DNA of 62,160 bases from Candidatus Buchananbacteria bacterium. Its GTDB lineage: Bacteria; Patescibacteriota; Patescibacteriia; 2-01-FULL-39-33. Under the pieces are notes generated by a model that did not search any database, was not told the DNA's origin, and worked only from the letters and a program-made list of their open reading frames with translations. Of this stretch, positions 50,467 to 61,244 are shown piece by piece; within the stretch, counting starts at the first letter, position 1; each line of letters starts with the position of its first letter. The stretch covers positions 1 to 62,160 of the forward strand of contig JAUSEE010000062.1 of the NCBI GenBank assembly GCA_030650095.1. The letters are read 5' to 3'. The position numbers and the translations under genes are program-made.

Positions 50467-51309
50467 TTAGTGGTTATCCAAGTATCCATCTTCCAAATAT
50501 TTGGCAATACGATCAGAATCAAGGTTGAGTTGCTCAACAATATCCCGGCTAATGCCCATAAAATCGGGATCATTTTCTATAGCATATACAATTTCTGATT
50601 TGGTACGGTAATTAATCATAATTTTAATTACCGACCAATGATCGGCCCAAACAGCTGTGGCAACCTTAAGAAGTTCCGGCAAAGTATAGCCATGCTGAAA
50701 ATATTCTAAGATAAAATTTTTACCATAGCCGGCGCCGTCAAGAGCTCTGATTTTTCGCTCCAAATTCCAATCAGAAATAGCTGAAATAATATCCTCTATG
50801 GGAAAATGCAACCGCAGAAGTTCAATAATCACAAAATCATTGCAACCGGTAATTGAGTAAGCCTCCATTGTTTCAGCTATATCACAATCACCATATACCA
50901 AAGATCGAACAATCCTCTGTGGTTCCCAATTACCGGCTTTCATCCTGGCGACAAGCGATGGCAGATCTTTATATAAATTAAAAATGAGTATTACTTTTTG
51001 CTCATCCTCAAATAATGATCCGTCTAAAGCCTGCCAAACCCGGTTGATATCCCAGGAAGCGAAACCAATGAATTCTAATATACTCTCAAAATCATAATCA
51101 TAATCCAAATTCAAAAGTTCTAGCATCTGCCTATCGCTTAATCCAGCCTCGATAAGCACTGGAAAAATGTCGGCTATATTAGCTAATTTATCATAAATAC
51201 AGACATGAAGTGAACTAATTAGCTCATTATGAACAAAGGGTTTTTCAGCCAAAAGCCGTCCGGCATTAACTAAATATTTTAAATATCTGGATCTTTCTTC
51301 GGCAGTCAT
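50467..51309 (-). CDS. Hypothetical protein, 280 aa, helical-repeat appearance, orphan
   Basis: ORF with SD aaaggag upstream. Recurrent short helical blocks (e.g. GLSDRQMLELL, GYTLPELLKVA). No family recognised. Confidence 0.65.
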   Translation of the reverse strand: MTAEERSRYLKYLVNAGRLLAEKPFVHNELISSLHVCIYDKLANIADIFPVLIEAGLSDRQMLELLNLDYDYDFESILEFIGFASWDINRVWQALDGSLFEDEQKVILIFNLYKDLPSLVARMKAGNWEPQRIVRSLVYGDCDIAETMEAYSITGCNDFVIIELLRLHFPIEDIISAISDWNLERKIRALDGAGYGKNFILEYFQHGYTLPELLKVATAVWADHWSVIKIMINYRTKSEIVYAIENDPDFMGISRDIVEQLNLDSDRIAKYLEDGYLDNH

Positions 51310-51446: not shown

Positions 51447-54400
51447 TTATATTTTTTCCAGTTGAATCTTAATTTCTTCATTATTAATTTTAGATTGAGC
51501 GCCCTCGTTATCTGATTTGATGAATTCCGTAGTGAGAGTGGCTTGCTTTAATTCCTCTAACCATCTTTTATCAGTTAAAATATTTATAACCATCTGACTG
51601 TCACTCTGCCACAAGACTTTTATTTTATCCCCGATAGTCAAACCATTATCTTTCCTAAGGCTGTTAATTGTCCTAACAAGTTCACGCAGCAAGCCTTCGG
51701 CTTTCAACTCCTCTGTCAGTTCTGTGTCCAGTTCCACTTTTATTTCGGCTCCTTTTTTAAATTCCACTTCTTTAACATTCACTTCATCGGCTATTAATTC
51801 TGCTAATTCTTTTGGCAAATCATAACCGGTAACTTTTAATTGGGCTAGCGGTTGTCTTATTTTTATGGCTTTTTCCGCCCGAGCCGCCAGACCCATTTCC
51901 ACAATTTTTCTGACACTGTCCATCTGCTCGATTATTTTGTGATCAGCTTTTTCGGCCTTAGGCCATTTATCCAAATGAACTGATTCTAATTTTCCTTTAG
52001 CCGCCAGATAAACTGATTCCGAGAGAAAGGGCATAAACGGCGCCATTATTTTAGACATTTCTATTAAGACAAAGTTAAAAGTGGAAAGAGCTTGTTTTTT
52101 GTCTTTCTCATCCCCCGATTTAAAGCGATCACGGCTGCGCCTTAGCCACCAAGTTGAGAACTCATCCACAAAATACTGTATCGGCCGAACTGCCTTAGAC
52201 AACTGGTAGCTGTCCAACTCTTTAGTGACGTCATGAGCCAATTTATTAAACTTAGCTATCAGCCATTTGTCCAATATATTCTTGGAATTATCGGCTGGCA
52301 CGATAGAATCGTCGGCATAGAGCTGATAAAATTTTACGATGTTACTAGTTAACATCACCACTTTCTGGAAAGCTTCTTTCACCCCGGTTTCTGAAAAATT
52401 AAAATTTTCCGCCGACATAACCGGAGAAGAAAGCAGATAAAACCGCAGGGCGTCAGCGCCGTATTTCTCAATAATCAAATCAGGCTCCGGATAATTCTTT
52501 AAGCGCTTGCTCATTTTAGTGCCATCTTCGGCTAAAACAATGCCATTGGCAACAACATTTAAAAAAGCCGGCTTATCAAACAAGGCTGTAGCCAAAATCA
52601 TCAAAGTGTAAAACCAACCGCGCGTTTGATCCACGCCTTCGGCGATAAAATCGGCCGGAAAAGTTTTCTGGAACTTGTCTTTATTTTCAAAAGGATAATG
52701 CAATTGGGCGTAGGGCATGGAACCGGATTCAAACCAGCAATCCAAAACCTCTGGTATCCTTTTCATTGGGCTGGAGCATTTGGGACAAGGCAATAAAATA
52801 GAATCCACCACGTCCTTATGGATATCAACTGTCTTTTCGGCCAACTTTACAGTATCGGTATTCTCCAGCATCGGCGAATCAAAAATATTGGCTGGCTTTA
52901 AACCGGCTAATTTTCCGGCCAGTATCCTAATATTATCGCCATGTGAAACCAAGAGGACATTCTTACCAGCATGATTTTTATTTATCTCTTTCCAAAGGCT
53001 AAACATCCTAGCCTCTACTTGAGCCGAACTTTCTCCCTGGGGAAATTGAAAAGTAGATTTTCTTTGCCATTCTTTTAATAATTCTGCGGCTGTTTCATCA
53101 CTATCAGACTGGCCTTGCAACTCGCCAGGATCAACTTCATTTAATCTATCATCAAAGGCCAATTTTATTTTAAGCTCATCGGCCATGATTTCGGCCGTTT
53201 GCTTGGACCTCAACACTTCCGAAGAAATGATTAAATAAATATTCAAATCTTTTAATTTTTTAGCTGCTTGTTTGGCTTGTTTTACGCCTTTTTCGGTCAA
53301 AGGATATTTATCCTTATCATTGCTAAAAACATTGAGTATGTTTTTTTCTGATTCGCCATGACGCATGGCATAGACATTGATCTCATCGATTTTAGATTTA
53401 TCCAATTCCTCGATTGAACCGATAACTTTTATCTCGCCGCAATCGCTACAGCGCCAAACTGGCAGGGGCGTGCCCCAAAACCTGGAACGAGAAATCGCCC
53501 AATCACGCGCATCTTCCAGCCAATGGCCAAAGCGGCCGAATTTTAAATGCTCCGGCACCCAATTAACCTGGCTGTTGTTTTTAATCAGATCTTTTTTAAT
53601 AGCGGTCACTTTCACAAACCAAGAAGAGGTGGCGTAATTTAAAAGAGGTGTATCGCAACGCCAGCAATGAGGATAACTATGCTCGTATTTTTCCTTGGAA
53701 AACAATAATTCCTTGTTTGATAAATATTTGATTATTTCCACATCGGTTTTCTGGGTATCTTCTTTGGGTTTAACTTCCAAGCCGGCAAAACCGTCGCCGA
53801 TATCGGATTTAATCCGGCCGGTTTCATCAACATGCTGGATCAAGGGAAGATTTTTTTCGCTCCCCAAGGCCATATCCTCTTCGCCGAAAGCCGGAGCAAT
53901 ATGGACTACGCCCACGCCATCGGTCGTGGAAACAAAATCAGCCGAGACAATCGTATAAAGATTTTCCTTGTACTCTATGTCCTTGTCTAAAAAATAATCA
54001 AACAGGGGTTTGTATTTTTTGCCTACTAATTCTTGGCCCTTGAATTCAGAAATAATTTTATACTCTTGGTCTTTAAAAACTTTCTCAACTAAATCCTTGG
54101 CCAATATAAATATTTCTTCCTGATTTTTGTGATTTTGTGTTTTGGTATCTTTGTAAATAACTTTAACATAATCAATATCCTCCCCCACAGCCAAGGCCAC
54201 ATTGCCAATAAGCGTCCAAGGCGTGGTAGTCCAAGCCAAAACATAAGTGCCCGGCTCGTCTTGCAACTCAAATTTGGCTGTCACGGCCAGATCTTTGACA
54301 TCTCTGTAGCCTTGAGTGACTTCGAAATTAGACAAGGTGGTTTCGCATCTGGGGCAAATGTGCATGGATTTATAGCCTTCATAAATCAAGCCTTTATCAA

Positions 54401-54893
54401 AAAGCTGTTTGAAGACCCACCAAATGCTTTCCATATACCAGGGCTCCATAGTTTTGTAATCCGCCTCCATGTCCACCCAACGACCCAGGCGGGGAATGGT
54501 TTTTTTCCAAATATCGGCATACCTCAAAACACTTAGGCGACAACTGTTATTAAACTTGCTGATGCCCATGGCTTCGATATCCTTGCGGCTTTTTAAATCA
54601 AGTTCCTGCTCAATCAGATTTTCTATCGGCAAGCCGTGGCAATCCCAGCCCCAACGGCGTTCTACATATTTGCCTTTCATGGTTTGATACCGCGGTACAA
54701 CATCCTTAATGAAACTTGAGGGAAAATGGCCATAGTGAGGCGTGCCAGTGGCAAAAGGCGGACCATCATAGAAACTGAAAACCTCGCCATTTCTGGTGGC
54801 GGCTAAGCTTTTTTCGAATATTTTATTATCCTCCCATGATTTTTGGATTTCCTTTTCTTTCTCGATCAAGGGGTTATTTTTCGCATCAGTCAT
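51447..54893 (-). CDS. ileS: Isoleucyl-tRNA synthetase with an in-frame histidine-phosphatase-like domain insertion
   Basis: HIGH-type PHYGH and KMSKR motifs, CP1 editing domain. Start placed at the Met of MTDAKNN (54893); the 10 upstream codons lie inside repeat copy E. The insert contains RHGES ... SHG motifs. Confidence 0.93.
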   Translation of the reverse strand: MTDAKNNPLIEKEKEIQKSWEDNKIFEKSLAATRNGEVFSFYDGPPFATGTPHYGHFPSSFIKDVVPRYQTMKGKYVERRWGWDCHGLPIENLIEQELDLKSRKDIEAMGISKFNNSCRLSVLRYADIWKKTIPRLGRWVDMEADYKTMEPWYMESIWWVFKQLFDKGLIYEGYKSMHICPRCETTLSNFEVTQGYRDVKDLAVTAKFELQDEPGTYVLAWTTTPWTLIGNVALAVGEDIDYVKVIYKDTKTQNHKNQEEIFILAKDLVEKVFKDQEYKIISEFKGQELVGKKYKPLFDYFLDKDIEYKENLYTIVSADFVSTTDGVGVVHIAPAFGEEDMALGSEKNLPLIQHVDETGRIKSDIGDGFAGLEVKPKEDTQKTDVEIIKYLSNKELLFSKEKYEHSYPHCWRCDTPLLNYATSSWFVKVTAIKKDLIKNNSQVNWVPEHLKFGRFGHWLEDARDWAISRSRFWGTPLPVWRCSDCGEIKVIGSIEELDKSKIDEINVYAMRHGESEKNILNVFSNDKDKYPLTEKGVKQAKQAAKKLKDLNIYLIISSEVLRSKQTAEIMADELKIKLAFDDRLNEVDPGELQGQSDSDETAAELLKEWQRKSTFQFPQGESSAQVEARMFSLWKEINKNHAGKNVLLVSHGDNIRILAGKLAGLKPANIFDSPMLENTDTVKLAEKTVDIHKDVVDSILLPCPKCSSPMKRIPEVLDCWFESGSMPYAQLHYPFENKDKFQKTFPADFIAEGVDQTRGWFYTLMILATALFDKPAFLNVVANGIVLAEDGTKMSKRLKNYPEPDLIIEKYGADALRFYLLSSPVMSAENFNFSETGVKEAFQKVVMLTSNIVKFYQLYADDSIVPADNSKNILDKWLIAKFNKLAHDVTKELDSYQLSKAVRPIQYFVDEFSTWWLRRSRDRFKSGDEKDKKQALSTFNFVLIEMSKIMAPFMPFLSESVYLAAKGKLESVHLDKWPKAEKADHKIIEQMDSVRKIVEMGLAARAEKAIKIRQPLAQLKVTGYDLPKELAELIADEVNVKEVEFKKGAEIKVELDTELTEELKAEGLLRELVRTINSLRKDNGLTIGDKIKVLWQSDSQMVINILTDKRWLEELKQATLTTEFIKSDNEGAQSKINNEEIKIQLEKI

Positions 54894-54897
54894 ATTT

Positions 54898-55038
54898 TTA
54901 TAATGTTGCTGCCCGAGTACCACTGGCTTTTAAGCCAGGGGATGAAGGGCAGTGTGAGGAAAAATACGTCGGCGGAGCCGACACCTTCCATTTGAAACCG
55001 CCCAGATACCCCGCTCTTTAGAGCGGGGGCGGGTTCAT
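54898..55038 (-). repeat. Structured repeat family, copy E (forward orientation on the minus strand, 4 nt upstream of the ileS ATG)
   Basis: Full-length copy. Its 3' end ...gcagcaacattataaaaat abuts the ileS start codon. Confidence 0.85.
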
Positions 55039-55221
55039 TATCTATTATATCACAGTTATTATGGCATTTTTTGATTCACCCTGTTAAATAAGATTTAAAT
55101 ATATTTAAATCTTATTTTTAAATTTTAGTTGTTTAAAAATTAAATCTTTTAAACGATGGAATATAAACGAAATGCTTATATTCGTATTATATAAAATTTA
55201 AAAATTATTAAACAGGGCAAA

Positions 55222-55487
55222 TAAAAAACCGACATGCCACCAAGAGCCTTACAAGGCGGTACCATCTCGGGATTATACTTGTTTTAAAAGCTGTAATGGG
55301 CTAACCCAGTCGGTTCTAACGGCAGATTTGCTTTCTTCCGACAGCTGCTTTGATGATAGTCAAAGTTTATCCCGTTAAAATACTCAGTAATTGAATTTTA
55401 ATCATTAAGGCTGAAACAGGATTGCCCCCAAATATAAACAATTAATAATATTATTTAACTTGGGGTCATATGCTTTTTATAAATTGT
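55222..55487 (-). promoter_or_regulatory. T-box leader (Ile) upstream of ileS
   Basis: Minus strand: ccgaga-UGGUACC-gcc-uuguaa-ggc-ucuugg forms a textbook antiterminator with the 7-nt bulge UGGUACC, followed by a U6 run. Candidate specifier AUC-A is in the hairpin loop cuuuga-CUAUCA-ucaaag (55365-55348). Promoter is TTGACT-17-TAAAGT (55522-55494). Confidence 0.65.
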
Positions 55488-55599
55488 ATTGTCACTTTAC
55501 TAGATTACGGTATTTTAGTCAACTGCCATTAAGACGCTATTTTAATTTACTAAGTATTATAAAAAACGGGCTTAACCCGCTTCTTATTTTAAAATTATT

Positions 55600-55794
55600 C
55601 TATTCTTCCCAGCTGATGGCCTGCACCGGACAAGCGACTATGGATTCATCAACTTTATCCTTATGGAGAGCGTAATCAGCTTCCTTGACCACGGCAATAA
55701 TCCTGTCGTCCTTCTCTTCCATTTTAAAAACTTCCGGACAAATTGATTCGCAAGTACCGCAACCGATACAGCTGTCGTTGACGATTGGCTTCAT
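55600..55794 (-). CDS. Ferredoxin (4Fe-4S)
   Basis: CIGCGTCESICP plus a distal C..CP motif; 64 aa. Confidence 0.85.
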   Translation of the reverse strand: MKPIVNDSCIGCGTCESICPEVFKMEEKDDRIIAVVKEADYALHKDKVDESIVACPVQAISWEE

Positions 55795-55835
55795 ATTTAA
55801 AAAAGTAATTATTTATTAATTCTTGATCACTGATT

Positions 55836-56240
55836 TTATTTATCATTGGAAGGAAAAATTTTATTTATCTTATCAACTAATTTAGACGGCGTATAATCGG
55901 ATTTTATCAAGTAATCTTTGGCGCCCAATTTCATGGCTTTTTCTATTTCATCTTTCTGGGTTAAATTGCTGAAAATGTAAACCAATGTCTGGCTGACAGA
56001 TTTATCGCCTTTTATTTCCCTTAAAACCTCATAACCGTCTTTTTTAGGAATGATTAAATCCAAAAGAACCAAATCCGGCTTTAGAGATTTAACCAGATCC
56101 AAAGCATTAGATCCGTCTTCTATGACCTCAACTTCAAAACCAGCCCTTTTTAGAGCTGTACTGAATAATTCCACCAGTTCCGGCTCATCTTCAATTAGAA
56201 GTATTTTATATTTTCTAGCCATAGGCTTATTATACACCAA
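55836..56240 (-). CDS. Response regulator, receiver domain only (CheY-like)
   Basis: ILLIEDE, DLVLLDLIIPKKDG and a conserved Lys region. An alternative start at 56222 (MARKYK) is likely. Confidence 0.85.
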   Translation of the reverse strand: MVYNKPMARKYKILLIEDEPELVELFSTALKRAGFEVEVIEDGSNALDLVKSLKPDLVLLDLIIPKKDGYEVLREIKGDKSVSQTLVYIFSNLTQKDEIEKAMKLGAKDYLIKSDYTPSKLVDKINKIFPSNDK

Positions 56241-56257
56241 TTAATTATACCTATAAA

Positions 56258-57988
56258 TTACATTTGATCAAGTGGCTCGATGCCCAAAATGGACAGGCCG
56301 TTAACCAAAACCTTCCGGACAGAATCAACTAAGATCAATCTGGCCTCTTTGATATCCTTGGACGAATTGATAATGGGAAACTTCTGATAAAAAGAAGAGA
56401 AAAGTCTAGCCAAATCAAACAAATATTTAGCGATTATGCTGGGATCGTAATTTTTAGACGATTCGGCCACTATTTCCGGCCAGCTGGCCAGCTGCAACAT
56501 GATTTCTTTTTCCAAATCGCTGTTTATTTTAGCATAATCAATTTTGGCCAAACCGCTGAATTTAGCTTTTTTAAGCACGCTGTTGATACGGCTGCAAGTG
56601 TATTGGATATAAGGGCCGCTAAAGCCGTCAAAGCTGAGTGATTCATCAATGTCAAAAGTTATGATGCTGTTATTGCCCACCTTTAACATATTGAATTTAA
56701 TGGCTGACAAGGCTATCTTGCGGGAAACCTCTTCGGTCTTTTTTTCCGGCCACTCCTGATGCCTGGTTTTGGTTTCAATTTTAGCCCGGCCAAAGACAGA
56801 ATTATAAAAATCTTTGAATAAAACCACATTGCCCTCTCGAGAAGCCATGGCTCCATCTTTTAGGGTGACGAATTCATAGGGTATGTGGACCATCTTCTTT
56901 TTAAAACCGATGACTTCCATGGTTTTAAAAAACTGCTGCAGATAAAAGCTTTGCCGGCTGTCTACTACCACAATGCTTTCGTCGATTTTAAATTTTTCAA
57001 ATTTTAATTTGGCCAAAGCCAATTCTTTGGTGGAATAAAGCGATGAGCCGTCTGACTTTAAAAGCAGGAATTTTTTTAAATCGTACTTTTCCAAATCAAT
57101 GATAACCGCTCCTTCTGATTTTTCGGCTACACCTTTTTTAAGCAGATCTGCCACTATTTTTTTGCCTGGCTTTTCCACTTCGCTTTCATAAAAAAAATGA
57201 TCAAATTGAATGCCTAGTATTTTATAAATCTTATCAAAATCGTCCAAACTCCACTTTCTGGTCTTTTTCCATAAGTCCAGCCACTTCTTACTCTCTCCGC
57301 CGAAAGATTTTGGATCTCCGCTTTCCAATTTCTGCAAAATATCATCAACTTCTTTTTTGTAATCGGGATTGGCTTCCAGTTTTTTAGAGCCATTAGTGTA
57401 GACCTGTCCCAAAAACTTGCCTTTGTCCTCGGGCAAATCTTTGTCTTTATAAAATTTATCATAAGCCCAAAGGCATTTGGCCACATGAGCCCCCACATCG
57501 CCGATATAATTAACCGGCATAACCTTGTTGCCGGAGAATCTAAGCAAATTAACCAAGCTGTTGCCTAAAATGGCATTCCTCAAATGGCCGATATGGAATT
57601 CTTTATGGGTGTTGGGCTGGGAAAATTCCAGCATTATTTTCTGATGATTGATTTTTAATCGGCCATAATCATTTTTAGCTTTTTGTATTTCGCTAATGAC
57701 ACTTTTGCCTAAAACAGCCGGATCAATAAAAAAATTCAAGTAAGGCCCGACATTTTTCAGGGCTTTGATTATGCCGCCCGGATTTATTTTGGCCGATAAT
57801 TCCTCAGCTACCTTAGTGGGAGATTTTCTGGTTAATTTTGACAGATAAAAACAAGGTACAGCCAAATCGCCCAAAGTGGAATCGGGCGGCACCACTATTT
57901 CTAATTTATCAATATCAAAATCAGGCTCAATGGCTTGGGCGATCAAATCTAATATTTGTTTTTTGATTTTTAAAATTGTGTATTCCAT
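56258..57988 (-). CDS. argS: Arginyl-tRNA synthetase
   Basis: Class I HIGH motif (FHIGHLRN), ArgRS N-terminal and DALR anticodon-binding regions. Confidence 0.93.
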   Translation of the reverse strand: MEYTILKIKKQILDLIAQAIEPDFDIDKLEIVVPPDSTLGDLAVPCFYLSKLTRKSPTKVAEELSAKINPGGIIKALKNVGPYLNFFIDPAVLGKSVISEIQKAKNDYGRLKINHQKIMLEFSQPNTHKEFHIGHLRNAILGNSLVNLLRFSGNKVMPVNYIGDVGAHVAKCLWAYDKFYKDKDLPEDKGKFLGQVYTNGSKKLEANPDYKKEVDDILQKLESGDPKSFGGESKKWLDLWKKTRKWSLDDFDKIYKILGIQFDHFFYESEVEKPGKKIVADLLKKGVAEKSEGAVIIDLEKYDLKKFLLLKSDGSSLYSTKELALAKLKFEKFKIDESIVVVDSRQSFYLQQFFKTMEVIGFKKKMVHIPYEFVTLKDGAMASREGNVVLFKDFYNSVFGRAKIETKTRHQEWPEKKTEEVSRKIALSAIKFNMLKVGNNSIITFDIDESLSFDGFSGPYIQYTCSRINSVLKKAKFSGLAKIDYAKINSDLEKEIMLQLASWPEIVAESSKNYDPSIIAKYLFDLARLFSSFYQKFPIINSSKDIKEARLILVDSVRKVLVNGLSILGIEPLDQM

Positions 57989-60638: not shown

Positions 60639-61244
60639 GTGGAAAATCATCAAACATTCTTAGATCGCCTGAGGCTAAAAGTTACCGATCATGAATTAGT
60701 TTTAATAGACTGGGCCTATATCTTTGCCAAATACGGGCACCGCAATCAAAAAAGAGATGATGGCACAAGATATTTTGACCACCTAAGATCAACAGCTTTG
60801 ATTTTAATAGATGAGTTGCAAATCTTTGACAGCCAAATGATCATGGCCGCCCTCATGCACGACATGTTGGAAGACAGCTTTCTGTTAAACATGGAAAGAA
60901 TTAAAGTTATTTTTGGCCAGGAAGTGGCTTATGCGGTAATGCTTTTAAGCCTGCCGGAAATGGACGAATCCATATTTACCTCCAAACAAGATCGTTTGGA
61001 GGCTTATCATCAGACTATTTTAAATAGTCCGCCCAAGGTTATGATTATCAAGTTATGCGATCGTCTTCACAATCTAAGAACAATGCCCAGTTGCACGCCG
61101 GAAAAAATAAAGCGTAAAGCTGAGGAGACTAGAGAGCATTATGTGCCACTTATTGATCTTTTGCAGAAAGATTATCCGCAAATAGCTGCAAAACTTAAAA
61201 TTGAATACGACAAAGCTCTGGCCCAGCTGCCAGAAACAGTCTAA
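60639..61244 (+). CDS. HD-domain (p)ppGpp hydrolase of the RelA/SpoT family (small alarmone hydrolase-like)
   Basis: YGHRNQKRDDGTRYFDHL, AALMHDMLED and KLCDRLHNLRTM match the RSH hydrolase-domain motifs. GTG start with SD aaggag 7 nt upstream. Confidence 0.8.
   Translation: MENHQTFLDRLRLKVTDHELVLIDWAYIFAKYGHRNQKRDDGTRYFDHLRSTALILIDELQIFDSQMIMAALMHDMLEDSFLLNMERIKVIFGQEVAYAVMLLSLPEMDESIFTSKQDRLEAYHQTILNSPPKVMIIKLCDRLHNLRTMPSCTPEKIKRKAEETREHYVPLIDLLQKDYPQIAAKLKIEYDKALAQLPETV

Follow-up and report, generated by a model that had tools for sequence, protein, structure and literature searches.

A histidine phosphatase domain embedded in, or encoded beside, the isoleucyl-tRNA synthetase of Patescibacteria

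The 62,160-nucleotide stretch analyzed here (contig JAUSEE010000062.1 of a Candidatus Buchananbacteria bacterium; 'the window' means this whole stretch) carries an ileS gene at 51447..54923 on the minus strand. According to its open reading frame (ORF) and to Pfam and NCBIfam, the product is a type-2 (eukaryote/archaeal-like) isoleucyl-tRNA synthetase (IleRS) into which a phosphatase is embedded. This phosphatase is a conserved, lineage-wide genomic partner of IleRS in Patescibacteria. The housekeeping IleRS of the window, from a Parcubacteria-type bacterium within the candidate phyla radiation (CPR), appears to have internalized a complete, catalytically competent phosphomonoesterase of the PhoE/PspA/CobC kind, which would be kept physically beside IleRS and at a one-to-one or higher dosage with it. 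On balance, we favor the view that the phosphatase is an autonomous hydrolase module tethered to IleRS and acting on a small phosphomonoester.

The inserted domain is a match to Pfam His_Phos_1 (histidine phosphatase superfamily, branch 1) and occupies residues 517-694 (52842..53375, minus strand). Residue numbers are those of the 1158-residue ORF with a GTG start, unless the numbering of the public gene call P0001 is stated. The match has an E-value of 2.2e-40 and a score of 138.9 bits, compared to a Pfam gathering threshold of 21.7, and covers positions 1-179 of the 194 in the profile. Relative to insert-less homologs, the entire extra segment with its linkers spans residues ~509-697 (~52833..53399, minus strand, by alignment). 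When the protein is aligned to the solved IleRS 6ldk, query residues 509 to 698 correspond to chain residues 497 to 504, so that ~190 residues stand for ~7. The segment is flanked by two conserved Cys pairs of a zinc knuckle, C492-x2-C495 in WRCSDCG (53439..53450, minus strand; C482 and C485 in P0001) and C713-x2-C716 in LPCPKCS (52776..52787, minus strand). All four cysteines are kept in at least 90% of 88 related IleRS. The domain therefore lies in the zinc-knuckle loop of the catalytic domain, ~100 residues upstream of the KMSKR motif.

An earlier note on this DNA, made from the sequence alone, had described ~180 extra residues at 52860-53390 in a single gene with an in-frame domain insertion, not two genes. 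Both statements hold, with the wider borders given above, as reading of the ORF finds no stop or frameshift at either junction. The same note had expected a short linker at this place in other IleRS and a His_Phos_1 match nested inside tRNA-synt_1, and had asked whether the insert folds as a domain of its own. The linker is ~7-10 residues long in solved IleRS and about eight in other IleRS, and the Pfam search gives exactly the nested arrangement. The AlphaFold2 (AF2) model of the insert alone is an ordered α/β domain with a predicted local distance difference test score (pLDDT) of 92.6. There is no sign of an intein or another mobile in-frame insertion: His_Phos_1 is the only Pfam family in the insert, with no Hint/splicing or homing-endonuclease domain, and there are no terminal repeats. 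The junction DNA contains no junction repeats or mobile-element signatures beyond short repeats at chance level.

The longest ileS ORF starts with GTG at 54923 on the minus strand, whereas the public gene call P0001 starts with ATG at 54893 and has 1148 residues. The N-terminal part of the synthetase, residues 1-508 (53400..54923, minus strand; ORF, Pfam and PDB alignment), consists of the first half of the Rossmann fold, the PHYGH motif with His63 (54735-54737, minus strand), the CP1 editing domain and then a strand (16 protein letters not shown). The C-terminal part, residues 698-1158 (51447..52832, minus strand; Pfam and PDB alignment), contains the second Rossmann half, the KMSKR motif (52503-52517, minus strand), the anticodon-binding domain and DUF5915. 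In Pfam terms, tRNA-synt_1 is found in two pieces, Anticodon_1 at 885-1026 and DUF5915 at 1041-1157. Despite the insertion, the product scores 892.6 bits with the NCBIfam ileS equivalog TIGR00392, well above the cutoff of 621.4. The class I signatures PHYGH and KMSKR and the editing motifs WTTTPWTL and HIAPAFGEED are all present, and the catalytic and editing-site positions are invariant or almost so in the alignment of 88 IleRS relatives. The enzyme is collinear with class I IleRS, its CP1 editing domain being intact, as the earlier note had read it.

The presence of DUF5915 (E=3.7e-18, Pfam) places the enzyme among type-2 IleRS. In a PDB search, IleRS2 and yeast IleRS are matched at E~1e-226, compared to 1e-90 for Staphylococcus aureus IleRS1, and Foldseek ranks the structures alike. 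The nearest solved structures, 6ldk, 8wnd, 8c8v and 1ile (E~1e-204 to 1e-228), are of type-2/eukaryote-like IleRS. The AF2 model of the whole protein, based on the alignment of 88 sequences, has a mean pLDDT of 90.9 and a predicted template modeling (TM) score of 0.82, and the insert is a well-ordered α/β domain in it. Foldseek with this full-length model returns only IleRS, with target-normalized TM scores of 0.82-0.91 to IleRS2 structures. Because the synthetic and editing motifs are intact, the protein of the window has a synthetic, an editing and a third, phosphatase-type site.

The active site of the inserted domain comprises Arg521-His522 of the RHG motif, with the nucleophilic His (53358..53363, minus strand), and a second catalytic His661 in VSHGD (52941..52943, minus strand). 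Alignment identifies four further residues of the domain, Arg572, Glu596, Glu631 and Arg639, within 52842..53375 on the same strand. Comparison of 130 domains, 101 embedded and 29 separate, shows that the Arg and His of RHG, the second and third Arg, the Glu of GES and the second His are invariant in all 130. The position of the catalytic acid (Glu596) is occupied by Glu in 127 domains and Asp in three. Such conservation shows catalysis to be under selection. The earlier assignment to branch 1, made from an RHG His, a downstream Arg and a distal His, is thus borne out by R521, H522, R572, E596 and H661. Judging from these residues, the domain is probably an active phosphomonoesterase with the standard mechanism, in which catalysis would proceed through a phospho-His intermediate.

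The predicted structure of the insert has the α/β fold of the phosphoglycerate mutases (PGM), with TM scores of 0.76-0.85 to PspA, PhoE, CobC and the cofactor-dependent mutase (dPGM). The best Foldseek matches in the PDB, at TM ~0.8, are PspA (4ij5 and 4ij6), Rv2419c (4pz9), PhoE (1ebb and 1h2e), CobC (6nru) and HFP (9mmh). These fold neighbors of the model are small-molecule phosphatases of ~200 residues and point to a small phosphoester as the substrate. The best match among NCBIfam subfamilies is the archaeal-type mutase dPGM_arch (NF038349), with 107.6 bits compared to a cutoff of 225; other dPGM models are further below theirs. The score is 98.0 for the α-ribazole phosphatase CobC (TIGR03162, cutoff 162.9), and only 75.6 for the phosphoserine phosphatase PspA (NF045917, cutoff 350), although PspA is the top Foldseek match.

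It is conceivable, if improbable, that the domain is a hidden glycolytic enzyme, a dPGM that merely shares an operon or a polypeptide with IleRS. Both the best NCBIfam match and the best PDB sequence match, the 211-residue Schizosaccharomyces pombe dPGM 1fzt (E=3.6e-16), are mutases, and the extra copies found in some IleRS (see below) would fit a metabolic dosage effect. Such an enzyme would also explain a PGM that seems to be missing in some Parcubacteria; PGM is reported to be seemingly absent from shallow Parcubacteria clades (Jaffe et al., PMC7304191). However, the alignment to 1fzt pairs E-V-D-P-G...Q-S-D of the window with E-R-Y-Y-G...L-N-K of the mutase, so that V, P and D replace the substrate-binding R, Y and K. 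Elsewhere WQRK of the window is aligned with WRRS of the mutase, and HGD with HGN. Only one is kept of the six dPGM substrate residues, which we take to be Arg90, Tyr92, Lys100, Arg116, Arg117 and Asn186 in E. coli numbering, and the second His is followed by G, E or Q across the domain family. As the mutase-specific residues are mostly replaced, the domain looks like a phosphatase and not like a mutase. Furthermore, its scores are below half of every dPGM cutoff, and the domain is wholly lost from close syntenic relatives.

The insertion is common among related synthetases. It is present at the same site in 78 of the 120 best IleRS matches among 5.8 billion proteins. In these 120 homologs the spacing between FWGTPLPVW and DCWFESG is bimodal, 60-65 residues in 42 proteins and 244-274 in 77; in P0108 it is 456 residues and accommodates two tandem copies. 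These matches, at 49-76% identity, stem from independent assemblies with names such as Patescibacteria, Buchananbacteria and Yonathbacteria. A word-index-free search of 1.84 billion cluster representatives with the insert only gave 2364 matches at E<=1e-10. The best 150 of them were classified into 59 IleRS or IleRS fragments, 73 single-domain proteins (~190-240 residues) and 18 tandem doubles. Long proteins among these 150 are IleRS without exception, and no other synthetase occurs among them. A contig scan with a junction-spanning peptide yielded a single close relative and an unrelated phosphatase, and nothing else.

These data bear on two doubts, namely that assembly has produced a chimera, or that a gene upstream has left a decaying, non-functional fragment in ileS. 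The same phosphatase does occur directly upstream of ileS in related lineages, and local rearrangement is the likely origin of the fusion. Dozens of independent assemblies nevertheless share this in-frame architecture, at 49-76% identity, which excludes chance and assembly chimerism. The invariant catalytic residues of the 130 domains, the well-predicted fold and the undisturbed junctions likewise argue against an inert passenger. We would assign next to no probability to an artefact or inert passenger, and the artefact is already refuted.

The earlier note had also named a finding that would speak against it, namely that the insert is a common annotated feature of this IleRS subtype. The feature is indeed common, as the 78 homologs show, and has long been present in NCBI and UniRef (e.g. 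in a UniRef entry from Azambacteria GW2011_GWA2_39_10), but it carries no functional annotation. The NCBI annotation pipeline PGAP names the insert-less proteins 'isoleucine--tRNA ligase', whereas those with the insert are called no more than 'class I tRNA ligase family protein'. Automatic annotation is thus spoiled by the insertion, and genomes can seem to lack IleRS. The embedded domain, in turn, may be overlooked or miscounted in metabolic reconstructions.

Two database records found in these searches are unusual. The nearest relative of the ileS of the window (L001, CAYIBK010000005.1; 76% identity, same insert) belongs to a metagenome-assembled genome labeled 'uncultured Gammaproteobacteria bacterium', although all the other relatives are affiliated with Patescibacteria. 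The record is probably mislabeled or misbinned. A 450-residue tandem-double histidine phosphatase, P0126, which is one of the best matches to the insert (E=4e-28), is from the eukprot transcriptome of the dinoflagellate Gymnodinium smaydae and may be either eukaryotic or a contaminant.

The phosphatase also exists as a separate gene next to ileS. The nearest free-standing relatives that could be placed on contigs, P0271 (41% identical), P0283 and P0290, are each followed directly, on the same strand, by an insert-less gene, and all three downstream genes pass the TIGR00392 ileS cutoff. Metagenomes of the Joint Genome Institute (JGI) were scanned with an alignment of the P0271-type free-standing clade, and the best 80 loci, chosen by similarity to this one clade, were analyzed. 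The phosphatase is linked to IleRS in all 74 loci that could be evaluated; the other six of the 80 lie at contig ends. It is a separate gene, with its stop abutting the ileS start, in 42 of the 80 loci; the free-standing form has ~190 residues in many relatives. Between its end and the point where the IleRS alignment begins lie <70 nt in 34 of these 42 loci and <300 nt in all of them, and in one locus (L011) the two ORFs overlap by 11 nt. The phosphatase is in frame between the N- and C-terminal parts of IleRS in 30 loci, and lies upstream of ileS with one gene in between in two.

The gene of arginyl-tRNA synthetase (ArgRS) is upstream in 67 of the 80 loci and is directly adjacent in both loci in which the ORFs were inspected. 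This makes the cluster argS-HP-ileS or argS-ileS[HP], where HP is the histidine phosphatase. Among the matches seen, fusion has occurred only into IleRS and never into the equally adjacent ArgRS. None of the metagenome loci contains both an upstream and an embedded copy, the arrangement expected of a rearrangement intermediate. IleRS paired with a separate phosphatase gene are found in Azambacteria, Nealsonbacteria, Staskawiczbacteria and Parcubacteria, all of which are Patescibacteria. The separate-gene form turns the question from that of an odd insertion into that of a conserved two-enzyme partnership.

The number and the position of the embedded copies vary. IleRS contain one to four phosphatase copies per protein at four insertion sites overall, the zinc knuckle and three others. 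Tandem pairs occupy the zinc knuckle of P0108, P0124 and P0132. A copy follows the HYPFEN loop (residues ~744-754, window numbering) in P0127, P0128, P0136 and P0259, and a copy is found just ahead of the anticodon-binding domain (residues ~871-880, window numbering) in P0123 and P0133. P0121 has four copies, one of them near residue 440 (window numbering). The catalytic set is intact in nearly all complete copies of the multi-copy IleRS, and the two-copy P0127 is found on contigs of up to 1.06 Mb. The operon partnership, the four insertion sites and the presence of up to four copies imply a functional link under selection, of which there is no earlier description.

In three phosphatase-bearing IleRS, the CP1/editing region also accommodates a NUDIX domain whose Nudix box is intact: P0060 (residues 323-454), P0112 (212-324) and P0095 (225-334). 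P0095 also ends in a C-terminal rhodanese domain (1317-1406). As recurrent neighbor genes, NUDIX and rhodanese gave one weak match in 92 loci and are thus not conserved neighbors. It seems that IleRS in Patescibacteria accretes several small hydrolase/transferase domains.

The company of NUDIX and IleRS raises the possibility, which we regard as rather unlikely, that the phosphatase frees the acceptor end of tRNA bound to IleRS, or about to bind it, from a blocking phosphate and so constitutes an extra repair site. Enzymes of the toxSAS/CapRel type pyrophosphorylate the CCA end of tRNA, and ribotoxins leave ends with a 3'-phosphate or a cyclic phosphate. The candidate substrates would be a 3'-phosphate, an opened 2',3'-cyclic phosphate or the remnant of a toxin-added 3'-pyrophosphate. 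The linkage of the phosphatase exclusively to a tRNA-handling enzyme, within a translation cluster thrS-argS-(HP)-ileS, agrees with such a role. CP1 handles the tRNA 3' end, and a NUDIX pyrophosphohydrolase placed there would, in combination with a monoesterase, make a two-step removal of pyrophosphate. The P0271-related phosphatases are, moreover, very basic, with a net charge of +16 to +20 in embedded and free forms alike. This charge is confined to their clade, however, being -4 in the domain of the window and -4 and -8 in the IleRS-adjacent P0283 and P0290, respectively. It is a property of the lineage and was rejected as a sign of RNA binding.

Other observations also disfavor the tRNA end as the substrate. 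The varying insertion sites and copy numbers do not suit a fixed path for the tRNA end, and the nearest folds are those of small-molecule enzymes. We know of no member of the histidine phosphatase superfamily that acts on RNA ends. The phosphatase has no match among the PADLOC defense models, and the domain has been lost repeatedly. It is accordingly doubtful, and in its full form still a little more so, that the IleRS of many Patescibacteria possesses a third activity (aided by NUDIX in some) that clears 3'-end phosphates from tRNA(Ile) before charging. If true, a tRNA-end repair or anti-toxin function would be built into, or encoded beside, an aminoacyl-tRNA synthetase.

The order of genes around ileS in the window is thrS, argS, a response regulator, a 64-residue ferredoxin, ileS, a U32 peptidase, ruvA, a Mur ligase and rpoB. 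The conserved upstream context (55600..57988, minus strand) is composed of argS (56258-57988), the single-domain response regulator (55836-56240) and the ferredoxin (55600-55794), all on the minus strand. The response regulator and the ferredoxin fill the slot between argS and ileS that is held by the free-standing phosphatase in other lineages. Four loci with an insert-less IleRS, L003 and L090-L092, share the upstream order thrS/argS/response regulator/ferredoxin/ileS with the window. The downstream genes are common to the window, L003, L091 and L092, whereas those of L090 differ. No phosphatase gene is found within 6-8 kb of ileS in these four loci. It follows from the synteny with insert-less relatives that the ileS of the window is the housekeeping ortholog and that the domain is dispensable.

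The state of the insert was mapped onto a neighbor-joining tree built from 927 columns of the IleRS core in 120 sequences. The Fitch count is 11 changes, and 9-11 over 30 bootstrap resamplings, with an insert-bearing root; taken as a lower bound, this amounts to about nine gains or losses of the insert. Among the metagenome loci the IleRS with an embedded phosphatase group as a single clade, whereas the phosphatase tree interleaves embedded and separate states. For example, the phosphatase of L014 (separate) is 77-78% identical to those of L016 and L019 (embedded), whereas their IleRS cores are 49-50% identical. This suggests that the phosphatase module has been exchanged between IleRS contexts. 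The Mantel correlation between phosphatase and IleRS divergence is r=0.11; since the sample had been chosen on phosphatase similarity, it was used only to flag discordant pairs. No residues of the IleRS core track the state of the insert, and there are only weak conservative differences with a best score of 0.56 (mixed clade).

The response regulator between argS and ileS, in the window and its close relatives, could be taken as a hint of a protein phosphatase similar to SixA, PGAM5 or Sts-1. Such an enzyme would act on IleRS, ArgRS or a phosphorelay protein and regulate or protect the synthetase. The histidine phosphatase superfamily does include protein phosphatases, and kinases of the HipA type phosphorylate GltX and TrpS close to the KMSKS region and thereby inactivate them. 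Even so, we give this explanation little chance. For the protein of the window, the 25 top-ranking families do not include SixA (TIGR00249), and the free-standing relatives score only 28-38 with it, far below its cutoff of 74.5. The response regulator is absent from loci with a free-standing phosphatase, where argS abuts the phosphatase directly. No kinase was seen in the neighborhoods, and the nearest folds are those of metabolite phosphatases.

The favored reading is that of an autonomous module, because the phosphatase also occurs as a stand-alone protein, has no fixed place in IleRS, leaves the core of the synthetase unadapted and is dispensed with by close relatives. The domain would act independently of the synthetic and editing sites, and would add no new step to the chemistry of aminoacylation or editing. 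Its substrate would be a phosphomonoester, most probably of a small nucleotide or metabolite type. Several observations weigh against this reading. The domain of the window does not reach the cutoff of any curated NCBIfam subfamily. The strict linkage to IleRS alone exceeds what would be expected of an unrelated housekeeping enzyme, and hints at a substrate tied to IleRS or tRNA(Ile). A nucleotide or an RNA end as the substrate would agree with the intact NUDIX domain that some of these proteins have in CP1. As to the partnership itself, free-standing relatives that are similarly distant (P0302 and P0279, ~35% identity) occur in unrelated contexts and are not linked to IleRS.

Few enzymes are as conserved as the aminoacyl-tRNA synthetases, whose accessory domains usually have a role in tRNA binding or editing or, as in eukaryotes, in signaling. 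Class Ia synthetases carry folded modules spliced into surface loops of the Rossmann-fold catalytic domain. The insertion described here likewise places a folded module in such a loop, as do CP1, the leucine-specific domain of LeuRS and the zinc-knuckle insertions. Those modules, however, are ancient and serve aminoacylation or editing, whereas the present insert is an unrelated hydrolase that also exists as a separate gene and has been gained or lost within the phylum. The mupirocin-insensitive type-2 IleRS of Priestia megaterium (IleRS2, 8C8V) and yeast (8WND) and the Thermus thermophilus enzyme (1ILE) have the same core, motifs, CP1, anticodon-binding domain and DUF5915 as the IleRS of the window. 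Between the two Cys pairs they have a linker of ~7-10 residues in place of the ~190-residue phosphatase.

The fold and the Arg-His...Arg...Glu...His set of the domain are shared with PhoE/YhfR (1EBB, 1H2E), PspA (4IJ5), Rv2419c (4PZ9), CobC (6NRU) and HFP (9MMH). PhoE, PspA, Rv2419c (a glucosyl-3-phosphoglycerate phosphatase), CobC and HFP (of the riboflavin pathway) are not attached to another enzyme and have known small substrates, whereas the present phosphatase is embedded in IleRS or encoded next to it. There is a precedent for a His_Phos_1 domain joined to a nucleic-acid enzyme, the bifunctional RNase H/CobC-like acid phosphatase (NF005567; Rv2228c/SCO2299 type). That, however, is a terminal fusion with an unrelated host enzyme, and the domain of the window scores 85.6 bits with this model, compared to a cutoff of 326. 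IleRS can also host an added catalytic domain of another kind, as in NF040702 (ileS_w_GNAT), where it is an acetyltransferase. The IleRS of the window has no GNAT domain and scores 286.7 with that model, the cutoff being 1999.

Searches of the full-text literature found no description of an IleRS, or of any aminoacyl-tRNA synthetase, with a histidine phosphatase domain or partner, in line with the earlier note, to which no synthetase with an embedded phosphatase was known. A paper on unusual synthetases of the CPR reports other fusions only. The accretion of domains by synthetases is already known, but the two-enzyme partnership of phosphatase and IleRS is undescribed. Knowing the substrate would either uncover a new reaction that assists translation in ultra-small bacteria or close a gap in their sparse metabolism.

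Some further features of the locus deserve mention. The spacer upstream of ileS (54894-55599) is unusually long (~680-700 nt), AT-rich and non-coding, compared to ~130 nt in L001. It contains three GC-rich hairpins at ~54900-55035, one of which is followed by a run of T. An Rfam search of the ileS leader detected no T-box and nothing above threshold, the only match being a sub-threshold HgcC-like one of 19 bits. A protein of 201 residues with an HD_4 domain (RelA/SpoT-type hydrolase) is encoded at 60639-61244 on the plus strand, adjoining thrS, and looks like a small alarmone hydrolase. Directly downstream of ileS, at 50467-51309 on the minus strand, there is an ORF of 280 residues with no Pfam or PADLOC match. 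The position of this ORF is occupied by a NIF3-like (DUF34) gene in L003 and L091.

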